Positions 6,755 through 28,691 of a stretch of DNA of 32,000 nucleotides are shown here, piece after piece. Every line of letters begins with the position of its first letter. Position 1 is the stretch's first letter. The stretch covers positions 1,710,001-1,742,000 of the forward strand of contig OY760660.1 of the NCBI GenBank assembly GCA_963663995.1, in the 5' to 3' direction. The notes under the pieces are model-generated. The model ran no database searches, was not told where the DNA came from, and saw only the letters and a program-made list of their open reading frames with translations. The position numbers and the translations under genes are program-made. Source of the stretch: Erysipelotrichaceae bacterium. GTDB taxonomy: Bacteria; Bacillota_I; Bacilli_A; Erysipelotrichales; Erysipelotrichaceae.

Positions 6755-7639
6755 ATGTGTACAATCGCACAAGTATCCAGATCAGGTTATTACGCCTTTA
6801 TCAAACGCAAACGAAGCCTTAATTTTAAAGACATTCAAGATGAGATTGATTTTGCCTACATCAAAGAAGCCTTCAACTATCGTGGCTATGATAAGGGTGC
6901 ACGACCCATTAAGATGTATCTTCAAGATAAACATAATAGGTGTATGAATCTTAAGAAAATACGAAGATTAATGCGTAAATACGGCTTAGTGTGTGAGATT
7001 AGACAAGCAAATCCATATCGACAAATGATGAGAGATATGGCAACTAACGATATATCAGTCAATCGAGTTAATCGACAATTCAAACAAGGGGTTGCGCGTA
7101 AAATACTTCTCACAGATATTACGTATATTACTTATGGTTCTCATAAGCGAGCTTATTTATCTGTCATCAAAGATGCCTCTAGTAATAAGATATTATCTTA
7201 TAGGGTATCAGAATCCTTAGATGTCTCGTTTGTATTAAAGACCGTTCAAGGGCTTATTGAAACACAAATGGGTGATTTAAATCTAAAGGTTCTCATTCAC
7301 TCAGATCAAGGTTCACATTATACATCAAGAGCCTTTAAACAAGTCTTAGATGAACTAGGAATTGAAAGTTCAATGTCGAGACGTGGAAATTGTTTAGATA
7401 ATGCAGCTCAAGAAAGTTTCTTTGGGCACATGAAAGATGAAGTAAAATTTAAGCATTATAAGACCTATATTGAATGTGTTGAAGCGATTATGGACTATAT
7501 CAACTACTATAATTATGATCGCCCACAATGGGGGTTACATCGTATGACACCTCATAAATATGAAAGTTACTTAGATCGTTCAGATGATATTCCATTATTA
7601 TTACCTGTTCTCTATCATCAGCCAGTAATATACCTATAA
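6755..7639 (+). CDS. IS3-family transposase OrfB (DDE/rve), OrfAB fusion by -1 frameshift
   Basis: rve core present (HSDQGSHYTS, GNCLDNAAQESFFGHMKDE). The orfB frame is open back to the slippery site and reads KARRTGKECEIQLSAQEKYEIIFNL.... Confidence 0.9.
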   Translation: MCTIAQVSRSGYYAFIKRKRSLNFKDIQDEIDFAYIKEAFNYRGYDKGARPIKMYLQDKHNRCMNLKKIRRLMRKYGLVCEIRQANPYRQMMRDMATNDISVNRVNRQFKQGVARKILLTDITYITYGSHKRAYLSVIKDASSNKILSYRVSESLDVSFVLKTVQGLIETQMGDLNLKVLIHSDQGSHYTSRAFKQVLDELGIESSMSRRGNCLDNAAQESFFGHMKDEVKFKHYKTYIECVEAIMDYINYYNYDRPQWGLHRMTPHKYESYLDRSDDIPLLLPVLYHQPVIYL

Positions 7640-9810: not shown

Positions 9811-10983
9811 TTACTTTTCGATAAAGGATTGTAGTTTATCCATTCCAATTGCACCAAGAGGAGCTGTCACTAATATTGCAAGTACAGCCATTGCTAAGAT
9901 GGTATTACCACTCTCTAGTCCAACGCTAAGTGGTATAGCACCAATCGCTGCTTGTACGGTTGCTTTAGGTGAATAAGCGACCATACAATAAAGTTTCTCT
10001 TTAAATGTAAAATGATTCTTTGACACTGAAATAAAAACACCAATAGATCTAAAGAATAAACCAATCATAAGTAAGATTAAAGCACTTAATCCGATGTATT
10101 GCAGATGATTTAAATCTACGATTGCTCCAACTAAGACAAAGAGTAATAACTCTGCCGCAACCCATGTTTTGTTGAATTTTGAAGATAAACGATGCGCCAA
10201 AATTGGGTAATGTTGAAGTAAAGCAATGCCCATTGCTAGGATTGAAATGTAACCTGAAAAAGGGATAAAGTCTCCATAATAAGATTCAATATTAACAAGC
10301 ACAAATGAAGTGGCTAATAGGATTAGATATTTTACTGTATCTCTAATATGAAATCTCTTGAAAAATTTGACTAATAAAATACTGATTAGAATACCCATTA
10401 AGATACCTGTTAAAAGACCAATCGGTAACTTTATAAAGGTCATGGCATTGATGCTTTGTCCAAGTGCTAATGCGAGAAATGAACTAAATAACACAATAAC
10501 AAATACATCATCGACTGATGCACCAGCCATGATTAATTGTGGAATCTTCTTATGATTAACTTGATCATTGTTGATGAGTTTCAGCATACGAGGTACCACC
10601 ACTGCTGGTGAAACAGCCGCAATGATACTTGCTAGTAGTGCTGCATCAATGGTAGATAGACCTAAGAAAATGGGAGCTAATAAAGTGATGGTGATTATTT
10701 CAATACTTGCCGGTAAAAAGGATAATAATATAGCTGGGCGTCCTATTTTCTTCAAATCTTCGATATCCAAAGCTAAGCCAGCTCTTAGTAAAATGACGAT
10801 TAAAGCAACTTGTCTTAGTTCACTTGAAATATATAATATTTTTGAGTCGATTAAATTTAAACTATGAGGACCTAAAAGCATACCTGCAATCATCATACCG
10901 ATTAATCCAGGTAATTTAAGATGGTTTAAAATGCCGCTAAACAGTAATCCTGTTAATAAAATAATCGCTAAACTCAATAACAT
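9811..10983 (-). CDS. Cation:proton antiporter (Na+/H+ exchanger family)
   Basis: 390 aa, highly hydrophobic with about 11-12 TM segments. The N-terminus LPGLIGMMIAGMLLGP is typical of CPA-type exchangers. Confidence 0.8.
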   Translation of the reverse strand: MLLSLAIILLTGLLFSGILNHLKLPGLIGMMIAGMLLGPHSLNLIDSKILYISSELRQVALIVILLRAGLALDIEDLKKIGRPAILLSFLPASIEIITITLLAPIFLGLSTIDAALLASIIAAVSPAVVVPRMLKLINNDQVNHKKIPQLIMAGASVDDVFVIVLFSSFLALALGQSINAMTFIKLPIGLLTGILMGILISILLVKFFKRFHIRDTVKYLILLATSFVLVNIESYYGDFIPFSGYISILAMGIALLQHYPILAHRLSSKFNKTWVAAELLLFVLVGAIVDLNHLQYIGLSALILLMIGLFFRSIGVFISVSKNHFTFKEKLYCMVAYSPKATVQAAIGAIPLSVGLESGNTILAMAVLAILVTAPLGAIGMDKLQSFIEK

Positions 10984-22480: not shown

Positions 22481-22557
22481 CGGGACGTAGCACAGCTTGG
22501 TAGTGCACTACCTTGGGGTGGTAGGGGTCGCGCGTTCAAATCGCGTCGTTCCGACCA
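22481..22557 (+). tRNA. tRNA-Pro (anticodon GGG)
   Basis: Acceptor CGGGACG/CGTTCCG, anticodon stem CTACC/GGTAG, loop TTGGGGT, encoded CCA. TGTATAAT lies about 11 nt upstream. Confidence 0.9.
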
Positions 22558-22561
22558 TTAC

Positions 22562-22638
22562 GCGGCTGTAGCTCAGCTGGATAGAGCGAGCGCCTCCTAA
22601 GCGCTAGGTCACAGGTTCAACTCCTGCCAGTCGCACCA
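22562..22638 (+). tRNA. tRNA-Arg (anticodon CCU)
   Basis: Acceptor GCGGCTG/CAGTCGC, anticodon stem AGCGC/GCGCT, loop CTCCTAA, encoded CCA. Confidence 0.9.
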
Positions 22639-22671
22639 GCTCATAATTGAGTGATGTTATATAGATAAAAT

Positions 22672-22754
22672 GCACCAGTGGCGGAATTGGTATACGCGCA
22701 CGTTTGAGGGGCGTGTGGGCAACCGTACGGGTTCAAGTCCCGTCTGGTGCACCA
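22672..22754 (+). tRNA. tRNA-Leu (anticodon GAG), class II with long variable arm
   Basis: Anticodon stem CACGT/GCGTG, loop TTGAGGG, long variable arm, encoded CCA. Confidence 0.85.
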
Positions 22755-22765
22755 TTAAAAACTAG

Positions 22766-22790
22766 AAAGATACGTTTCGTATCTTTTTTT
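22766..22790 (+). terminator. Terminator of the tRNA Pro-Arg-Leu cluster
   Basis: AAAGATACG-TTT-CGTATCTTT plus a T-run. Confidence 0.85.
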
Positions 22791-22893
22791 AATACTTGTG
22801 TTTAAATTTATAAAGTTCACTTGAATCTTATGTGAAACTTAAGTATTTGTATTCATCATAAGACCTAAAATATGCTATTCTAATGAAAATAAA

Positions 22894-22918
22894 ACACAAA
22901 TTGTTTCAGGATTTGTGT
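22894..22918. promoter_or_regulatory. Perfect inverted repeat ACACAAAT-N9-ATTTGTGT upstream of the ATP-grasp operon
   Basis: Read directly. It lies 26 nt upstream of the ATG at 22944. It could be an operator or an RNA hairpin. Confidence 0.5.
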
Positions 22919-22943
22919 AAATGTTTTCATAAGGTGGTGGACT

Positions 22944-24104
22944 ATGAACTATGTATTTATTTCTGTGAGCTTTCCGGATAATTTTAAGTATTTTGTTAAT
23001 CGATTAAACTCGTATGGTATTAACGTATTTGGAATTGCTTCCGATAACTTTGATGCGCTTGATCCTGACTTGCGAGAACATTTAAGTGATTATTACCGTG
23101 TGAATGATTTAGAAAATTATGAAGAAGTTTATCGTGCAGTTGCATATCTTGCTTATCGCTTTGGGAAGATTGACTATATTGAATCACACAATGAACATTG
23201 GATGGAATTGGACGCTAAACTAAGAACTGATTTCAATGTTGATGGAATAAAAAATAATTCGATTATGAGAATCAAAAAGAAATCAGAAATGAAAAAGATT
23301 TTTGAGTCTTTAAATTTAGCTCATGATGAAGGCGCAACTTTTAACACTTTAAATGAAGCGAAGAAATTAGCTAAGAAATATAAATATCCTGTATGTGTTA
23401 AACCAGATATTGGGGTTGGCGCAGCTTATACCTATCGAATCAATTCAAACGAAGATTTAGAATCATTCTATGCTTCAAAACCAGATAAAACTTTCATTAT
23501 GGAACCCTATAATGAAGGATCAATTATGACTTATGATGGGCTTTTAGATAAAGAAGGTAAGATTGTTTTTGATAATTCACTTGTTTACTCACAACCCGTC
23601 ATAGATATTGTGAATAGTAATTTAGATATGTTTTACTATACAGAATTGAAAGTAAATAAAGAACTAAAAGAAATGGGGAAAAAGATTTGTGATGCGTATC
23701 AACTTCATTCTCGTTTCTTCCATTTTGAATTTTTTAAGAGCAGTGATGGAAAACTATCACTCTTAGAAGTGAATATGCGTCCACCTGGTGGGAAAACAAT
23801 GGATATGTTCAACTTTGCGAATGACTTTGATTTCTATGATGCCTATGCCAGAATAGTAGCTAATCAAGAACTTTCGATTCCTCAAAAGAAACTTTACAGT
23901 GTTTGTCATGTTGGGTTAAAAACAGAAAATGATGATAAACGTTTATTAAAATATGATCAAATTAAAGAACAGTATGGTGATTTAATTGTCTATGAGGGTT
24001 CAATGGCTGATATTTTATCGCCAGCACTTGGAAATTACTGCTTCTTTTTGAGAAGTAAAAAGGTGTCTGAGCTTAAGAAGGCAGCTCATACGATTATAAG
24101 ATAA
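22944..24104 (+). CDS. ATP-grasp domain protein (carboxylate-amine ligase type), paralog 1
   Basis: 386 aa with AAGGTGGTGG before the ATG. ATP-grasp-like blocks YPVCVKPDIGVGA, IMEPY and LLEVNMRPPGG. Collinear with the next gene along its full length. Confidence 0.75.
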   Translation: MNYVFISVSFPDNFKYFVNRLNSYGINVFGIASDNFDALDPDLREHLSDYYRVNDLENYEEVYRAVAYLAYRFGKIDYIESHNEHWMELDAKLRTDFNVDGIKNNSIMRIKKKSEMKKIFESLNLAHDEGATFNTLNEAKKLAKKYKYPVCVKPDIGVGAAYTYRINSNEDLESFYASKPDKTFIMEPYNEGSIMTYDGLLDKEGKIVFDNSLVYSQPVIDIVNSNLDMFYYTELKVNKELKEMGKKICDAYQLHSRFFHFEFFKSSDGKLSLLEVNMRPPGGKTMDMFNFANDFDFYDAYARIVANQELSIPQKKLYSVCHVGLKTENDDKRLLKYDQIKEQYGDLIVYEGSMADILSPALGNYCFFLRSKKVSELKKAAHTIIR

Positions 24105-24116
24105 GAGGATACGTTT

Positions 24117-25286
24117 ATGAATGTTATTGTGATATCACCCCACTTTCCAGATAACTTTAGATTGTTTTCATTAGCATTATCTAAAGAAGGTATTCGTGTG
24201 TTTGGGATAGATAATCAACAATACAGTGACCTATCTCATGATTTAAAATCATCATTAACTGAGTATTATCAAGTTTCAGATTTAGAAAATTATGAAGATG
24301 TTTTAAAAGCGGTTGCTTACTTTACCCATAAGTATGGAAAAATTGATCGCATTGAGTCTCATAATGAACATTGGTTGATGTTGGATGCGAAGTTAAGAGA
24401 AGATTTTAACGTCTTTGGTTTTAAACCAAAAGATTTAAAAGCGATACAATCAAAATTAAAAATGAAAGAAGTCTTTAATGAAAATGGCATTAAAACTGCA
24501 CGTGGTATTTTAATTGAGAACTTTGAACAAACCTCTAGATTTATTAAAGAAGTTAACTATCCAGTTGTCGCTAAACCTGATACTGGTGTTGGCGCAAGTG
24601 GTACTTATAAAATTCATAATGAGGAAGAACTAAAGAATTTCTTTAAAAAGGGAATCCATACTGCTTATGTCATGGAAGAATATATCAAAGGTGAAATCCA
24701 TACTTTTGATGGTTTAGTTGATCGTAATGGGCATATCGTTTATGCCAATTCTTTTATTTTTCCTGTTGGTGTGATGGAAACAGTAAATGCTGATTTAGAT
24801 ATGATTTACTATACTCAAGCTAGTATTCCAGAGGACATAAAAGAAGCTGGATATAAAATAGTTGAAGCTTTTAATCTTAAAGAACGATTCTTTCATATTG
24901 AATTCTTTAGAACTGAAAATCAAAATTTATATGCATTAGAAATCAACGTACGTCCACCTGGTGGTTATTCTGTCGATATTTTTAACTTTGCGAATGATAC
25001 TAATTATTATGCAGAATATGCCAAACTTGTGGCTGGTCAAAAAATAGTCGAACGGATTGGGAATAAATATGTTTGTTTATATATTGGACAAAAAGCACAT
25101 TTTGAAAATGAATATAAATTAAGCAAAGAAGAAGTAAGACAAAAATATTTACCACATATTGTTTTCTATGGTGAAATAGCATCAATTTTTGCGAAAGCGA
25201 TTGGTAATTATGCTTACATTTTAAAAGGTCAAGATTTAGATGAATTAAAAAATATTGCGAAAGCCATATTGGAAAAGAGATCATAA
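24117..25286 (+). CDS. ATP-grasp domain protein, paralog 2
   Basis: 389 aa sharing blocks with paralog 1: FPDNF, YY.V.DLENYE.V..AVAY, GKID.IESHNEHW, LDAKLR.DFNV, YPV..KPD.GVGA, RFFH.EFF, E.N.RPPGG, D.FNFAND, GNY. Confidence 0.75.
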   Translation: MNVIVISPHFPDNFRLFSLALSKEGIRVFGIDNQQYSDLSHDLKSSLTEYYQVSDLENYEDVLKAVAYFTHKYGKIDRIESHNEHWLMLDAKLREDFNVFGFKPKDLKAIQSKLKMKEVFNENGIKTARGILIENFEQTSRFIKEVNYPVVAKPDTGVGASGTYKIHNEEELKNFFKKGIHTAYVMEEYIKGEIHTFDGLVDRNGHIVYANSFIFPVGVMETVNADLDMIYYTQASIPEDIKEAGYKIVEAFNLKERFFHIEFFRTENQNLYALEINVRPPGGYSVDIFNFANDTNYYAEYAKLVAGQKIVERIGNKYVCLYIGQKAHFENEYKLSKEEVRQKYLPHIVFYGEIASIFAKAIGNYAYILKGQDLDELKNIAKAILEKRS

Positions 25287-25288
25287 GT

Positions 25289-26041
25289 ATGCATGTAGAA
25301 TATCATGATTATTATAGCTATCGCTTAGGTCGAAATATGGCATTTAAGATTTATGGCCATGCTGGAAAACCAATCATAGTTTTCCCCTCTTCAGGAGGAC
25401 GTTTTTACGAGTATGAAGATTTTCAAATGATTGACTCTATTGCATGGTTTATTGATCAAGGATTAGTCAGAGTGTATACACCTGATTCAATAGATGCTGA
25501 AACATGGTTTTCAGATGACAAATGGGCTGGGGATAAAGCGCGTTATCATAATGCCTATGACCAATATATTGTCGAAGAATTTGTGCCTTATATTAGATTG
25601 CAAAGTGGATGGTCCTATCAAATGATCGTGACAGGTTGTTCAATGGGTGCCTATCATTCAGCTAATTTCTTTTTTAAACATCCAGATGTTTTTGACACAT
25701 TGATTGCTTTAAGTGGCATTTATGATGCAAGATTTTTTGTAGGCGACAATATTTCTGATACAGATGTTTATTTTAATTCTCCAGTGGATTATTTAAAAGA
25801 TTTAAATGATCCATATTATTTGGACAGAATTAAAGAAGGGAATATAATTGTATGTACAGGCCAAGGTGATTTTGAAGCTGATTCACTCAGAGATACACAG
25901 CATCTTCAATCGGTTTTGAATGAAAAAGGAATTCCGGCATGGATTGACTATTGGGGGCAAGACGTCAAACATGATTGGAAATGGTGGAAAATTCAAATGC
26001 CATATTATCTTGGTAAATTGAAAGAGTTAGGGAAACTATAG
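25289..26041 (+). CDS. Esterase-family alpha/beta hydrolase (putative-esterase / esterase D-like fold)
   Basis: 250 aa with nucleophile elbow GCSMGA. It starts 2 nt after the stop of ATP-grasp paralog 2. Confidence 0.7.
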   Translation: MHVEYHDYYSYRLGRNMAFKIYGHAGKPIIVFPSSGGRFYEYEDFQMIDSIAWFIDQGLVRVYTPDSIDAETWFSDDKWAGDKARYHNAYDQYIVEEFVPYIRLQSGWSYQMIVTGCSMGAYHSANFFFKHPDVFDTLIALSGIYDARFFVGDNISDTDVYFNSPVDYLKDLNDPYYLDRIKEGNIIVCTGQGDFEADSLRDTQHLQSVLNEKGIPAWIDYWGQDVKHDWKWWKIQMPYYLGKLKELGKL

Positions 26042-26042
26042 A

Positions 26043-27227
26043 ATGATTGATTATCCAGATTTTTTTGATCAAATTAATGATCGACACAACACCAACAGCA
26101 TGAAATGGGATGCTCATGACATGCTTAAGAAACCAAGTGACTCATATCCATTATGGGTGGCAGACATGGACTTTAAAGTCATGCCAGAAATCGTAGAAGC
26201 ATTACATAAAGAAGTTGATCTCTCGCTTTATGGCTATACTTTTGAAAGCGAAGAGTATACCAATTCTATTATCAATTGGTTAGATCGCCGACATAACTAT
26301 CACACTCAAAAAGAATGGATAACATCAACGCCTGGAGTCGTATCAGGATTAAATGCAGCCATACTTGCACTCACAAATGTTGGGGATCATATCCTTATTC
26401 AAGAACCGGTTTATTATCCTTTTAAACGCTCGATTTTAACAAACAAACGTGAAGTTACAATTAATGAACTAGTTTATAAAGATAACGAGTATTCTATCGA
26501 TTTTGTCGATTTTGAAAAACAAATTAAAGAGAATGATATAAAACTCTTTATTCTATGTTCACCACATAATCCTGTTGGGAAAGTTTTTACAGAGAATGAA
26601 CTTAGCCAAATGGTGGATATCTGTAAGAAATATGAAGTCATTATTGTTTCTGATGAAATCCATATGGACTTTGTATTTGCGCCAAATAAACATATTGTTA
26701 CGGCTGAACTTAGAAAAGATTATGCAGATCACATTATTACTTTATATGCAGCATCTAAAACATTTAACTTAGCTGGAATGAAAGTATCTCAGTTGATATC
26801 TTCAAATCTTGAAATGATAAAGAAAATTAAAGATACTTATATGATTTTAGGATTACATGGTGTCAATACAATGGGATTAATCGCATCAACAGCAGCATAT
26901 ACTTATGGTGATGCTTATGTTGATAACATTGTTTCCTATCTTGATACATCTATTAAGTGGCTACAAGATTACTTAAAAACTGAGTTGCCTCAAGTTAAAC
27001 TTGTTAATCCACAAGGGACATATATTCTTTGGTTAGATTTTAAAGCTTTGAATATGAAACAAGAAGACTTGGATCAATTCTGTTTAAATGAGGCAAAGAT
27101 GTGGCTAAATAACGGATCGCTTTTTGGTCAAGGGGGTGAAGGTTTTATGCGTATTAACATAGCCCTTCCTTTATCTGAACTTAAAAAAGTGATGAATAAT
27201 TTAAAGAAAGCGATTGATTCGCTTTAG
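26043..27227 (+). CDS. PLP-dependent class I/II aminotransferase-fold enzyme of the MalY/PatB (C-S lyase) type
   Basis: 394 aa with PLP-lysine motif AASKTFNLAGMK, plus NPHNPVGKVF-like SPHNPVGKVF and the RINIA tail typical of PatB/MalY. It starts 1 nt after the esterase stop. Confidence 0.8.
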   Translation: MIDYPDFFDQINDRHNTNSMKWDAHDMLKKPSDSYPLWVADMDFKVMPEIVEALHKEVDLSLYGYTFESEEYTNSIINWLDRRHNYHTQKEWITSTPGVVSGLNAAILALTNVGDHILIQEPVYYPFKRSILTNKREVTINELVYKDNEYSIDFVDFEKQIKENDIKLFILCSPHNPVGKVFTENELSQMVDICKKYEVIIVSDEIHMDFVFAPNKHIVTAELRKDYADHIITLYAASKTFNLAGMKVSQLISSNLEMIKKIKDTYMILGLHGVNTMGLIASTAAYTYGDAYVDNIVSYLDTSIKWLQDYLKTELPQVKLVNPQGTYILWLDFKALNMKQEDLDQFCLNEAKMWLNNGSLFGQGGEGFMRINIALPLSELKKVMNNLKKAIDSL

Positions 27228-27237
27228 GAGATTGTTT

Positions 27238-27786
27238 ATGAAAGTTGCGGCATTACTAGCAAATGGTTTTGAAGAAACTGAAGCGATATCAGTCATTGAT
27301 ATCTTAAGAAGAGCCAATATCACGGTTGATCTTGTCTCAATAAAAGATGAAGTGGTTGAAAGCTCCCATGGCATTAAACTTGTAGCTGATAAATTGTTTG
27401 AAGACATGAATCAATATGATGCTTTATTTTTACCAGGTGGACAGCCGGGAACCAATAATCTTAAAGCAGATACACGTGTTTTATCACTTGTTCAAGATTA
27501 TGTTTCACAAAATAAATGGGTCGTAGCTATCTGTGCCGCACCACTCGTTTTAGAAGAAGCAGGCGTGCTAAATCAAAAGGCTATTACTTCATATCCAATG
27601 GGTGATCCTAAAACAATCTTTCCAGATGCTCACTACAGTGAAGAGTTAGTTGTTAAGGATGGAAAGATAATCACTTCAAGAGGCGTTGGAACGGCTTTAT
27701 ACTTAGGATTTGCTTTTGTTGAAGCATTAGGTTTAGATAGTACACAACTTCAAAAAAGTACGCTATTCCAAGGCAAACTCAAATAA
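27238..27786 (+). CDS. DJ-1/PfpI family protein
   Basis: MKVAALLANGFEE start with AGGAG upstream and nucleophile-elbow Cys in VVAICAAP. The ATG at 27238 is preferred over the listed start at 27214, which overlaps the previous gene. Confidence 0.85.
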   Translation: MKVAALLANGFEETEAISVIDILRRANITVDLVSIKDEVVESSHGIKLVADKLFEDMNQYDALFLPGGQPGTNNLKADTRVLSLVQDYVSQNKWVVAICAAPLVLEEAGVLNQKAITSYPMGDPKTIFPDAHYSEELVVKDGKIITSRGVGTALYLGFAFVEALGLDSTQLQKSTLFQGKLK

Positions 27787-27813: not shown

Positions 27814-27897
27814 GCACCAGTGGCGGAACTGGTATACGCTCACGTCTCAGAAGCGTGTGACTTTGTCGTACGGGTTCAAGTCCCGTCTGGTGCACCA
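27814..27897 (+). tRNA. tRNA-Leu (anticodon CAG), class II
   Basis: Anticodon stem CACGT/GCGTG, loop CTCAGAA, long variable arm, encoded CCA. The 5' 15 nt and 3' 31 nt are identical to tRNA-Leu(GAG) at 22672. Confidence 0.85.
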
Positions 27898-27920: not shown

Positions 27921-28691
27921 ATGTCAAAACAAGTTATCTATCAAATCTATGCAGAATTAAGTGATTACAAGTATGGATGTAGTAGAAGATTTCAAATAAA
28001 GGCAAATGATTCATTCGCAAAACTGGGATATGTGCTTATGACTTTGTTTGAAATGAAGGCTAGTCATCAATTTAGATTTATCTATGACGTAGAATCAAAT
28101 TTTATTCGTAATACAAATGAATTAATTCATAATGAAGTAAATCAAAAAGTTTTGAAGCGATTTAAAGAAGAACCTTTTCTTAAATTTTGCTTAATAGAAA
28201 TACCCAATAAATTCATACCACCAGCACCACACTATCAAAATATGGATGCGACAGTTATGGCAATAAAAGATGTGATGTTAGAAGCGAAAGAATTTATAGA
28301 TTTTGAGTATGACTTTGGCGATAGTTGGTATATTCATCTTATTCTTGAAGAAATCATAATTTCTGATACAAGCTATCTCCCTTCGAAAAACTATCCAAAT
28401 GTACTTTCAGGAAAAGGCTTTGGCATTATTGAAAATTGTGGTGGAGTGTGTGGACTTGAAAGTATATATCGAGCATTTGAAAGAAAATCTGGTAAGAAAT
28501 ATGAAGAATATGTCGATTGGTTAGCAACTGATCAAATAGATTTAAATGCATTTAATTTGGATGAAATGAATTCACGTATTAAAAAGATACCTAAAATATT
28601 TAAAAAGATATACGAAGAAGATTATCAATTAGCAGAAGCAGAGCTTAAATATATACTAAGAGAAACATTCAACAAAGATGTTTTGACATAG
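27921..28691 (+). CDS. pRiA4b ORF-3-like family protein
   Basis: 256 aa. The YQIYAEL...RRFQI N-terminus and the FEYDFGDSWYIHLILEEI block resemble the plasmid pRiA4b ORF-3 family (recalled motif YDFGD.W.H). Confidence 0.65.
   Translation: MSKQVIYQIYAELSDYKYGCSRRFQIKANDSFAKLGYVLMTLFEMKASHQFRFIYDVESNFIRNTNELIHNEVNQKVLKRFKEEPFLKFCLIEIPNKFIPPAPHYQNMDATVMAIKDVMLEAKEFIDFEYDFGDSWYIHLILEEIIISDTSYLPSKNYPNVLSGKGFGIIENCGGVCGLESIYRAFERKSGKKYEEYVDWLATDQIDLNAFNLDEMNSRIKKIPKIFKKIYEEDYQLAEAELKYILRETFNKDVLT

Follow-up and report, generated by a model that had tools for sequence, protein, structure and literature searches.

Some bacterial ligases are kept together with a hydrolase of their own product, and precedents include cyanophycin synthetase CphA with cyanophycinase CphB, the glutathionylspermidine synthetase/amidase Gss of E. 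coli and the PuuA/PuuD pair of putrescine use. The same logic may apply at a locus that we analysed in an Erysipelotrichaceae bacterium, within a 32,000-nt stretch of contig OY760660.1 (assembly GCA_963663995.1, positions 1,710,001 to 1,742,000; hereafter the window). At this locus, genes for two ATP-grasp paralogs (AG1 and AG2) and a 250-aa esterase (ESTA) directly precede a PatB/MalY-type C-S lyase gene (patB) and a gene of the DJ-1/glyoxalase III family (DJ-1). Our comparisons indicate that these five genes are two units, a ligase-ESTA cassette and a resident patB-DJ-1 pair, and not one conserved system, and that the cassette represents a real and widespread module that is apparently uncharacterised. 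Throughout, "ligase" denotes any member of the AG1/AG2 family, and ESTB a second esterase type known from relatives.

In CphA and CphB an ATP-grasp-type synthetase and a hydrolase of its product occur together, as would be the case at our locus. However, the window ligases score 21 and 33 bits against the cyanophycin synthetase model TIGR02068 (cut-off 850), lack a Mur-ligase domain and are only 386-389 aa long, which rules out a cyanophycin synthetase identity, and ESTA is an esterase-D-fold enzyme whereas CphB is an S51 peptidase. For Gss and PuuA/PuuD, examples of co-inherited enzymes that make and hydrolyse one amide, the likeness lies in a reversible conjugate or attach-transform-release logic and is an analogy only, since their hydrolases have different folds (a CHAP amidase and a class I glutamine amidotransferase-like enzyme, respectively) and the proteins of our locus have no sequence relation to either system. 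Closer to the window ligases are the L-amino-acid ligases RizA (4wd3), BL00235 (3vot) and YwfE/BacD (3vmm/3wnz), which have the same three-domain ATP-grasp fold in approximately 390-470 aa and the Lys, Glu/Asn and Arg catalytic set that is also present in the window family. The window family differs from them in being only 14-17% identical, in having its own N-terminal motifs FPDNF and ESHNEHW and in lying outside antibiotic clusters, obligately paired with PF00756 esterases; to our knowledge, such a pairing has not been described for any L-amino-acid ligase. ESTA, in turn, has the fold, GxSxG elbow and Ser-acid-His triad of esterase D/S-formylglutathione hydrolase, the CE1 feruloyl esterases and antigen 85, but is 11-18% identical to these enzymes, has no signal peptide and has an ATP-grasp ligase as its specific partner.

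The cassette and its insertion site

The features of the locus are listed below with coordinates that refer to the whole 32,000-nt stretch.

22481..22754, + strand: tRNA-Pro(GGG), tRNA-Arg(CCT) and tRNA-Leu(GAG), left border of the tRNA frame (ARAGORN)
22766..22792, + strand: hairpin and T-run 3' of tRNA-Leu(GAG), likely the terminator of the tRNA cluster (sequence reading; stem found by scan at 22766-22786)
22868..22932, + strand: AT-rich promoter/leader element, ..TGCTATTCTAATGAAAATAA..TTTTCA.. (conservation among relatives)
22944..24104, + strand: AG1, L-amino-acid-ligase-like ATP-grasp protein, the more diverged paralog (386 aa; ATP-grasp_4)
24117..25286, + strand: AG2, L-amino-acid-ligase-like ATP-grasp protein (389 aa; ATP-grasp_4; AlphaFold2 (AF2) model)
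25289..26041, + strand: ESTA, PF00756 serine hydrolase, predicted to be cytoplasmic (250 aa; Pfam; AF2 model)
26043..27227, + strand: patB, PatB/MalY-type C-S lyase, resident gene outside the cassette (394 aa; TIGR04350)
27238..27786, + strand: DJ-1/glyoxalase III family gene, resident (182 aa from its ATG; TIGR01383)
27814..27897, + strand: tRNA-Leu(CAG), right border of the tRNA frame, 27 nt 3' of DJ-1 (ARAGORN)

Open reading frame (ORF) and family scans bore out the layout given by a first-pass annotation of the window, namely five ORFs separated by gaps of 12, 2, 1 and 10 nt, together with their domain labels. PatB matches TIGR04350 at 429 bits (cut-off 340) over residues 8-391; DJ-1, whose longest ORF opens at a TTG at 27214 upstream of the ATG at 27238, matches TIGR01383 at 163 bits (cut-off 131) and carries an AICAAP motif with the nucleophile-elbow Cys. 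The PADLOC defence-system models gave no match. Each gap contains a purine-rich Shine-Dalgarno-like run and a scan for terminators between the five genes found nothing convincing, in agreement with the earlier view of a compact operon, and all five are probably read from a promoter before AG1.

The same site without the cassette was found in relatives reached via PatB homology (loci L164-L166; PatB 55-59% identical). In L166, glmS on the minus strand is followed by tRNA-Pro, tRNA-Arg, tRNA-Leu(GAG), patB, DJ-1 and tRNA-Leu(CAG); in L164, the same four tRNA genes enclose only patB and DJ-1, and in L165 the same frame contains two additional genes that separate patB from DJ-1. The PatB proteins of L164 and L166 are each 59% identical to that of the window. 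The tRNA-Pro(GGG)/Arg(CCT)/Leu(GAG) cluster, which lies 5' of patB in all three loci, also occurs at the syntenic site of a genome of the same genus (G110), where a DJ-1 ortholog (51% identical) sits directly 5' of tRNA-Leu(CAG) and where ligase, ESTA and patB are all absent. The leader element at approximately 22868-22932 is kept 5' of AG1 in a second genome of the genus (G034) and in the metagenome loci L140 and L141, whose contigs start with the 3' end of the tRNA-Leu(GAG) gene, and it aligns with the element 5' of patB in the empty site of L166. The empty sites and this alignment therefore place the cassette behind the promoter/leader of patB, and together these data indicate that the 3.1-kb AG1-AG2-ESTA block (22944-26041) is an insertion between the resident patB promoter/leader and patB. 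This position of the cassette accounts for the tight packing and for the apparent operon. The locus is a mosaic, in which an ancestral arrangement tRNA-Pro/Arg/Leu(GAG) - promoter - patB - DJ-1 - tRNA-Leu(CAG) received AG1-AG2-ESTA between the patB promoter/leader and patB, and the promoter now probably serves all five genes.

We also compared gene neighbourhoods from the perspective of each unit. The order ligase(-ligase)-ESTA-PatB-DJ-1 is found in G034 at 81-86% identity and in four metagenome contigs with AG2 proteins that are 64-71% identical; besides the window it is confined to this narrow clade (L086, L087 and L140-L142), in which ligase identity is 64% or higher. In 83 other ligase loci, neither PatB nor DJ-1 is a neighbour of the ligase, apart from one distant aminotransferase match about 7 kb away in L033, and none of the 28 nearest PatB loci from other genomes of the family has DJ-1, ligase or ESTA alongside. 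Thus, patB and DJ-1 are a resident pair at the tRNA site in close relatives and not a generic pair of the family. The first-pass annotation, which had treated the five genes as one system, had itself named a lack of joint conservation as grounds for abandoning that view, and our neighbourhood comparison found the five together nowhere outside the narrow clade. What survives of the claim is that the ATP-grasp proteins and the esterase belong together; PatB and DJ-1, as the empty sites L164 and L166 show, do not belong with them. The cassette, as opposed to patB-DJ-1, is a separate heritable unit and we infer that PatB and DJ-1 are co-expressed neighbours only. The lesson for the window is that tight packing reflects insertion into an existing operon and not a five-enzyme pathway.

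The origin of the cassette can be approached through its sequences. In a tree of the ligase family, AG1 and AG2 fall outside the main Erysipelotrichaceae clade and group with proteins of Tissierellaceae, Clostridiaceae and Acidaminobacter. The window ESTA and its Peptoclostridium acidaminophilum counterpart share 70% identity, whereas most Erysipelotrichaceae ESTAs are 35-49% identical to it, the exceptions being those of G034 and of genus g35. Tree placement and ESTA identities therefore make horizontal acquisition likely, with the cassette probably derived from a Clostridia/Tissierellia-type lineage.

The ligase-esterase module across bacteria

To describe the module beyond the window, we took 85 loci around ligase homologs, 83 of them distinct, from genome and metagenome collections. 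ESTA is present in 61 of the 83 loci and in nearly all of these it lies directly 3' of the ligase. Loci with the module come from at least 10 phyla, across which the ligase/ESTA pair is 40-55% identical, and the sources comprise Bacillota, Chloroflexota, Thermodesulfobacteriota, Myxococcota, Deinococcota, Melainabacteria, Bacteroidota, Lentisphaerota, Synergistota, Pasteurellaceae and Deferrimicrobiota. When 838 neighbouring ORFs were clustered, ligase and ESTA were the only conserved families besides two clusters that are antisense-ORF artefacts, and the remaining clusters consist of lineage-specific housekeeping genes (ArgRS, PGM, RuvB, MnmA and BipA). No transporter or regulator that might hint at a substrate was found among the neighbours of the ligase loci, and a search for riboswitches and T-boxes 5' of the ligase returned none in 28 loci and none in the two leaders. 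The ESTA family as a whole forms 570 clusters at 50% identity (E at most 1e-30).

Twin ligases had been taken in the first-pass annotation to form two successive bonds, a reading that does not hold in general: 76 of the 83 loci have a single ligase, and tandem duplications, which occur in about seven other loci, have arisen independently at least three times. The second ligase is therefore an optional add-on and not a required second step. Based on these comparisons, the constant parts of the module are one L-amino-acid-ligase-like ATP-grasp protein and ESTA, which ESTB often joins.

Co-occurrence within the family gives the same picture. Among 151 Erysipelotrichaceae genomes, the ligase is present in 90 (about 60%) and ESTA in 87; both are found in 85 genomes, neither in 59 and only one of the two in 7 (5 and 2), which corresponds to a Fisher p value of 2.5e-33 with kinship ignored. 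Among the 85 genomes with both, 34 carry them at separate sites. In nine of ten such unlinked genomes that we retrieved, the ligase is followed by ESTB, a second and unrelated PF00756 esterase (86 bits), and across the sample ESTB is found in 77 of 90 ligase-positive genomes as against 1 of 61 ligase-negative ones. In total, the ligase is adjoined by ESTA or ESTB in 82 of 90 genomes, and the complete string ligase-ESTA-ESTB occurs in 20. Ligase and ESTA are thus gained and lost together, even when unlinked, and depend on one another functionally. The window module contains AG1, AG2 and ESTA; a search of its genome for ESTB recovered no ortholog, only a 29% identical PF00756 match about 1.3 Mb away (E 4e-18).

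The unlinked loci have recurrent neighbours of their own. BipA (typA/bipA), a ribosome-associated GTPase, adjoins ESTA in all ten sampled genomes (L143-L162), and the ligase of six to seven of these genomes lies within the string Amidase_3 - NUDIX - ligase - ESTB - ApaH-like phosphoesterase. At one such locus (L144; G132:C1:1609700-1622500), a 295-aa, apparently truncated ligase-like ORF lies directly 5' of ESTA, and the full-length ligase of this genome is found with ESTB 0.5 Mb away from ESTA; the truncated ORF may be the remnant of an older ligase-ESTA pair. Elsewhere in the sample, the ligases of Pasteurellaceae (Glaesserella and Actinobacillus) and of a Streptococcus metagenome-assembled genome form a tight clade (L026, L030, L050 and L082), which suggests transfer among host-associated bacteria of different phyla. 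A deltaproteobacterial locus (L081) has a 249-aa ORF at 9959-10708, after ligase-ligase-ESTA, that matches nothing in Pfam or NCBIfam and may be a further component of the module.

Full-text literature searches found no paper on the ligase-ESTA pair. It is one of the more widely distributed enzyme pairs for which no product is known: a major family of gut bacteria has it in most genera, and it also occurs in Chloroflexota, Thermodesulfobacteriota, Deinococcota, Pasteurellaceae and others. If the product were identified, hundreds of gene families would gain an annotation, and a cytoplasmic conjugate not seen before might come to light.

Enzymes, chemistry and competing explanations

The two ligases had been described as full-length paralogs roughly 40% identical, and alignment gave 42% identity over 385 residues without gaps (E 5e-118), with all of the quoted motifs (FPDNF, GKIDxIESHNEHW, YPVxxKPDxGVGA, RFFHxEFF, ExNxRPPGG and FNFAND) present in both. 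They score 37.8 and 53.5 bits against ATP-grasp_4. Structure prediction, which had been put forward as a route to the nearest characterised ligase, yielded an AF2 model of AG2 with a predicted local distance difference test (pLDDT) score of 90.6. Its best Foldseek matches are RizA (4wd3), BL00235 (3vot) and YwfE/BacD, followed by PurK and biotin carboxylases, with template modelling (TM) scores of approximately 0.74 at 14-20% identity for the top matches; in addition, a profile of the ligase family finds 4wd3 in the PDB at E 4e-21. The family has the features of an L-amino-acid ligase, that is, the three-domain ATP-grasp fold with an ATP-binding Lys, Mg-binding Glu/Asn and a catalytic Arg, and the corresponding residues (Lys153, Glu275, Asn277 and Arg279) are invariant in 20 ligase sequences including AG1. 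Of 71 positions that are conserved in at least 90% of the family, 68 are kept in AG1 and 68-69 across both paralogs; given these positions and the catalytic residues, both paralogs are therefore probably active. No characterised pathway accounts for them, as had been noted from the sequence at the outset: scores against the models for BacD (bacilysin), PylC, Ddl and cyanophycin synthetase fall well short of the cut-offs (27 bits versus 850 for the BacD model NF053745) and identity to RizA is 17%. The ligase is thus closest to L-amino-acid ligases, RizA in particular, but matches no characterised family.

ESTA is a PF00756 esterase by its Pfam score (35.4 bits; gathering cut-off 22), its GCSMGA elbow and triad, and its alpha/beta hydrolase fold. 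Its AF2 model (pLDDT 95.9) is most similar to the CE1 feruloyl esterases, FrmB and Ag85C, the esterase-D/CE1/Ag85 fold. Across 51 sequences Ser118 and His228 never vary, and position 196 is occupied by Glu (49 sequences) or Asp (2), indicating an intact Ser118-Glu196-His228 triad; the triad acid of Ag85C is likewise Glu. A search of NCBIfam returned no match, the S-formylglutathione hydrolase model TIGR02821 included, and no N-terminal signal sequence was evident by eye. Judged by their sequences, ligase and ESTA look like competent, cytoplasmic enzymes. The only fusion partners of ESTA homologs are low-complexity tails and, once, a GDSL hydrolase. The tails, seen in four homologs (P0150, P0185, P0188 and P0236), are C-terminal, 200 aa long and without Pfam match; they are mostly rich in Ala, Lys, Thr and Pro, basic and histone-H1-like, and some open with an acidic AEAE stretch.

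Taken with the precedents of paired ligases and hydrolases, these properties point to a chemistry in which the ligase most likely attaches an amino-acid-derived group to a cytoplasmic compound through an amide or ester bond that the esterase then breaks. The ligase would convert a carboxylate, most likely one belonging to an amino acid, into an acyl phosphate and transfer it to a common cytoplasmic compound, whose accepting group would be an amine or possibly a hydroxyl or thiol. ESTA, through Ser118-Glu196-His228, would hydrolyse the ligase-made bond or a derivative of the product, such that the two enzymes would run a make-and-break or attach-then-release cycle. The second ligase at our locus would be an active add-on that provides a second substrate specificity or forms a heteromer. 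The 40-55% identity across phyla suggests that the ligase substrate is universal.

We assign a probability of roughly 0.7 to the account as a whole, that is, a mosaic locus in which an inserted ligase-esterase make-and-break cassette is co-expressed with PatB and DJ-1. Several observations weigh against it. The Fisher tests ignore phylogeny, and the nearest solved structures to ligase and ESTA are only 14-20% identical. Members of PF00756 are mostly (thio)esterases or acyltransferases whereas the nearest ligases make amides, and the bond that both enzymes would act on may be an amide, an ester or a thioester. Co-transcription of the five genes is deduced from their spacing alone. The five-gene order persists to 64% ligase identity, and co-expression with patB-DJ-1 may therefore bring some selective benefit. 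Finally, AG1 and AG2 are not sister clades, which bears on the origin of the second ligase. Within the same account, we regard as tentative, and on balance unlikely, a version in which the ligase makes an ester or thioester, such as an aminoacylated hydroxyl of a sugar, nucleotide or polymer, that two dedicated PF00756 esterases remove. If this is true, about 60% of Erysipelotrichaceae and members of at least 10 bacterial phyla would have an ATP-driven cycle of reversible acylation, or a reserve compound, that has so far gone unrecognised.

Other explanations differ in which genes and which target they invoke. A pathway of all five genes, in which both ligases would work with the esterase, PatB and DJ-1 on the synthesis, tailoring or recycling of a small sulfur-containing amino-acid derivative, would fit the tight gaps, the probable single promoter and a gene order shared by at least six genomes or contigs. 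Thiol chemistry is also the field of both DJ-1 and PatB, and the relatives of esterase D are thioesterases. However, one insertion followed by descent explains the order, the empty-site relatives hold patB-DJ-1 without the cassette, and the two units ignore one another elsewhere (0 of 83 other ligase loci, 0 of 28 other PatB loci); the sulfur-compound proposal of the first-pass annotation is left unsupported by this separation, and we consider it improbable. Unlikely as well, though with a real chance of being correct, is that the pair reversibly aminoacylates or acylates a glucan, cell-wall precursor, nucleic acid or protein and not a free small molecule. The best fold matches of ESTA act on sugar esters (CE1 feruloyl esterases and the Ag85C mycolyltransferase), the basic tails of some of its homologs are typical of polyanion binding, and neighbours with roles in translation or sugar metabolism recur, namely BipA at the ten unlinked ESTA loci, ArgRS (5), phosphoglucomutase (5), tRNA genes, glmS and a polysaccharide deacetylase. 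Yet these neighbours are housekeeping genes inherited within lineages, and neither ligase nor ESTA has a binding module at the Pfam cut-off. A link to glycogen found no support either: 141 of the 151 family genomes have glgA, two ligase-positive ones (G018 and G138) do not, and in the complete genomes that we checked the gene is on a different contig from the ligase or distant from it.

The kinship of the ligase to RizA, YwfE/BacD and BL00235, and the fact that rhizocticin biosynthesis also uses twin ligases, would be in keeping with a secondary-metabolite cassette whose ligase makes a Trojan-horse di- or tripeptide antibiotic of the bacilysin or rhizocticin type and whose esterase serves self-protection or maturation. 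We hold this to be very improbable, as no locus has a gene for warhead biosynthesis, an exporter or a regulator, the score against the BacD model is negligible, and a distribution over 60% of the family and no fewer than 10 phyla, with 40-55% identity, fits core metabolism. A graspetide system, a microviridin-like ribosomally synthesized peptide pathway with MdnB/MdnC-like twin ligases, has the two tandem ATP-grasp genes in its favour and is effectively refuted: there is no conserved precursor ORF (the sole upstream ORF has no Shine-Dalgarno sequence and its length is not conserved), the intergenic gaps are too small for a precursor gene, the fold is nearest to L-amino-acid ligases and PurK and not to graspetide cyclases, and single-ligase loci dominate.

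Variation at the tRNA frame

Across the window and loci L163-L166, the glmS-adjoining tRNA frame is constant and its contents vary. It encloses patB-DJ-1, a SIS-PTS IIB-DJ-1 set, patB-glyoxalase-MatE-DJ-1 or the five genes of the window, and it looks like a small hot spot of gene exchange between tRNA genes. The DNA beyond the frame also differs: in the window tRNA-Leu(CAG) is followed by a pRiA4b ORF3-like gene (27921-28691), in G034 (L086, 11875-13341) a HAD hydrolase gene lies between the two, and L164 and L166 have different genes at this position.

A search of Rfam with the leader element matched no family. Within the leader, an 8-bp inverted repeat at 22894-22918 (ACACAAAT..ATTTGTGT) has a counterpart in G034 (L086, approximately 6780-6805; ACATAAAT..ATTTATGT) in which both arms are changed and pairing is preserved, and it is not evident in L140 or L141. 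This repeat could be an operator or a 5' untranslated region hairpin of the original patB leader. In addition, a near-consensus sigma-70-like site, TGGACA-16-TATAAT, is located at 25821-25848 within ESTA, 195 nt 5' of patB; it may act as an internal promoter, or AT-rich DNA may match the consensus here by chance.

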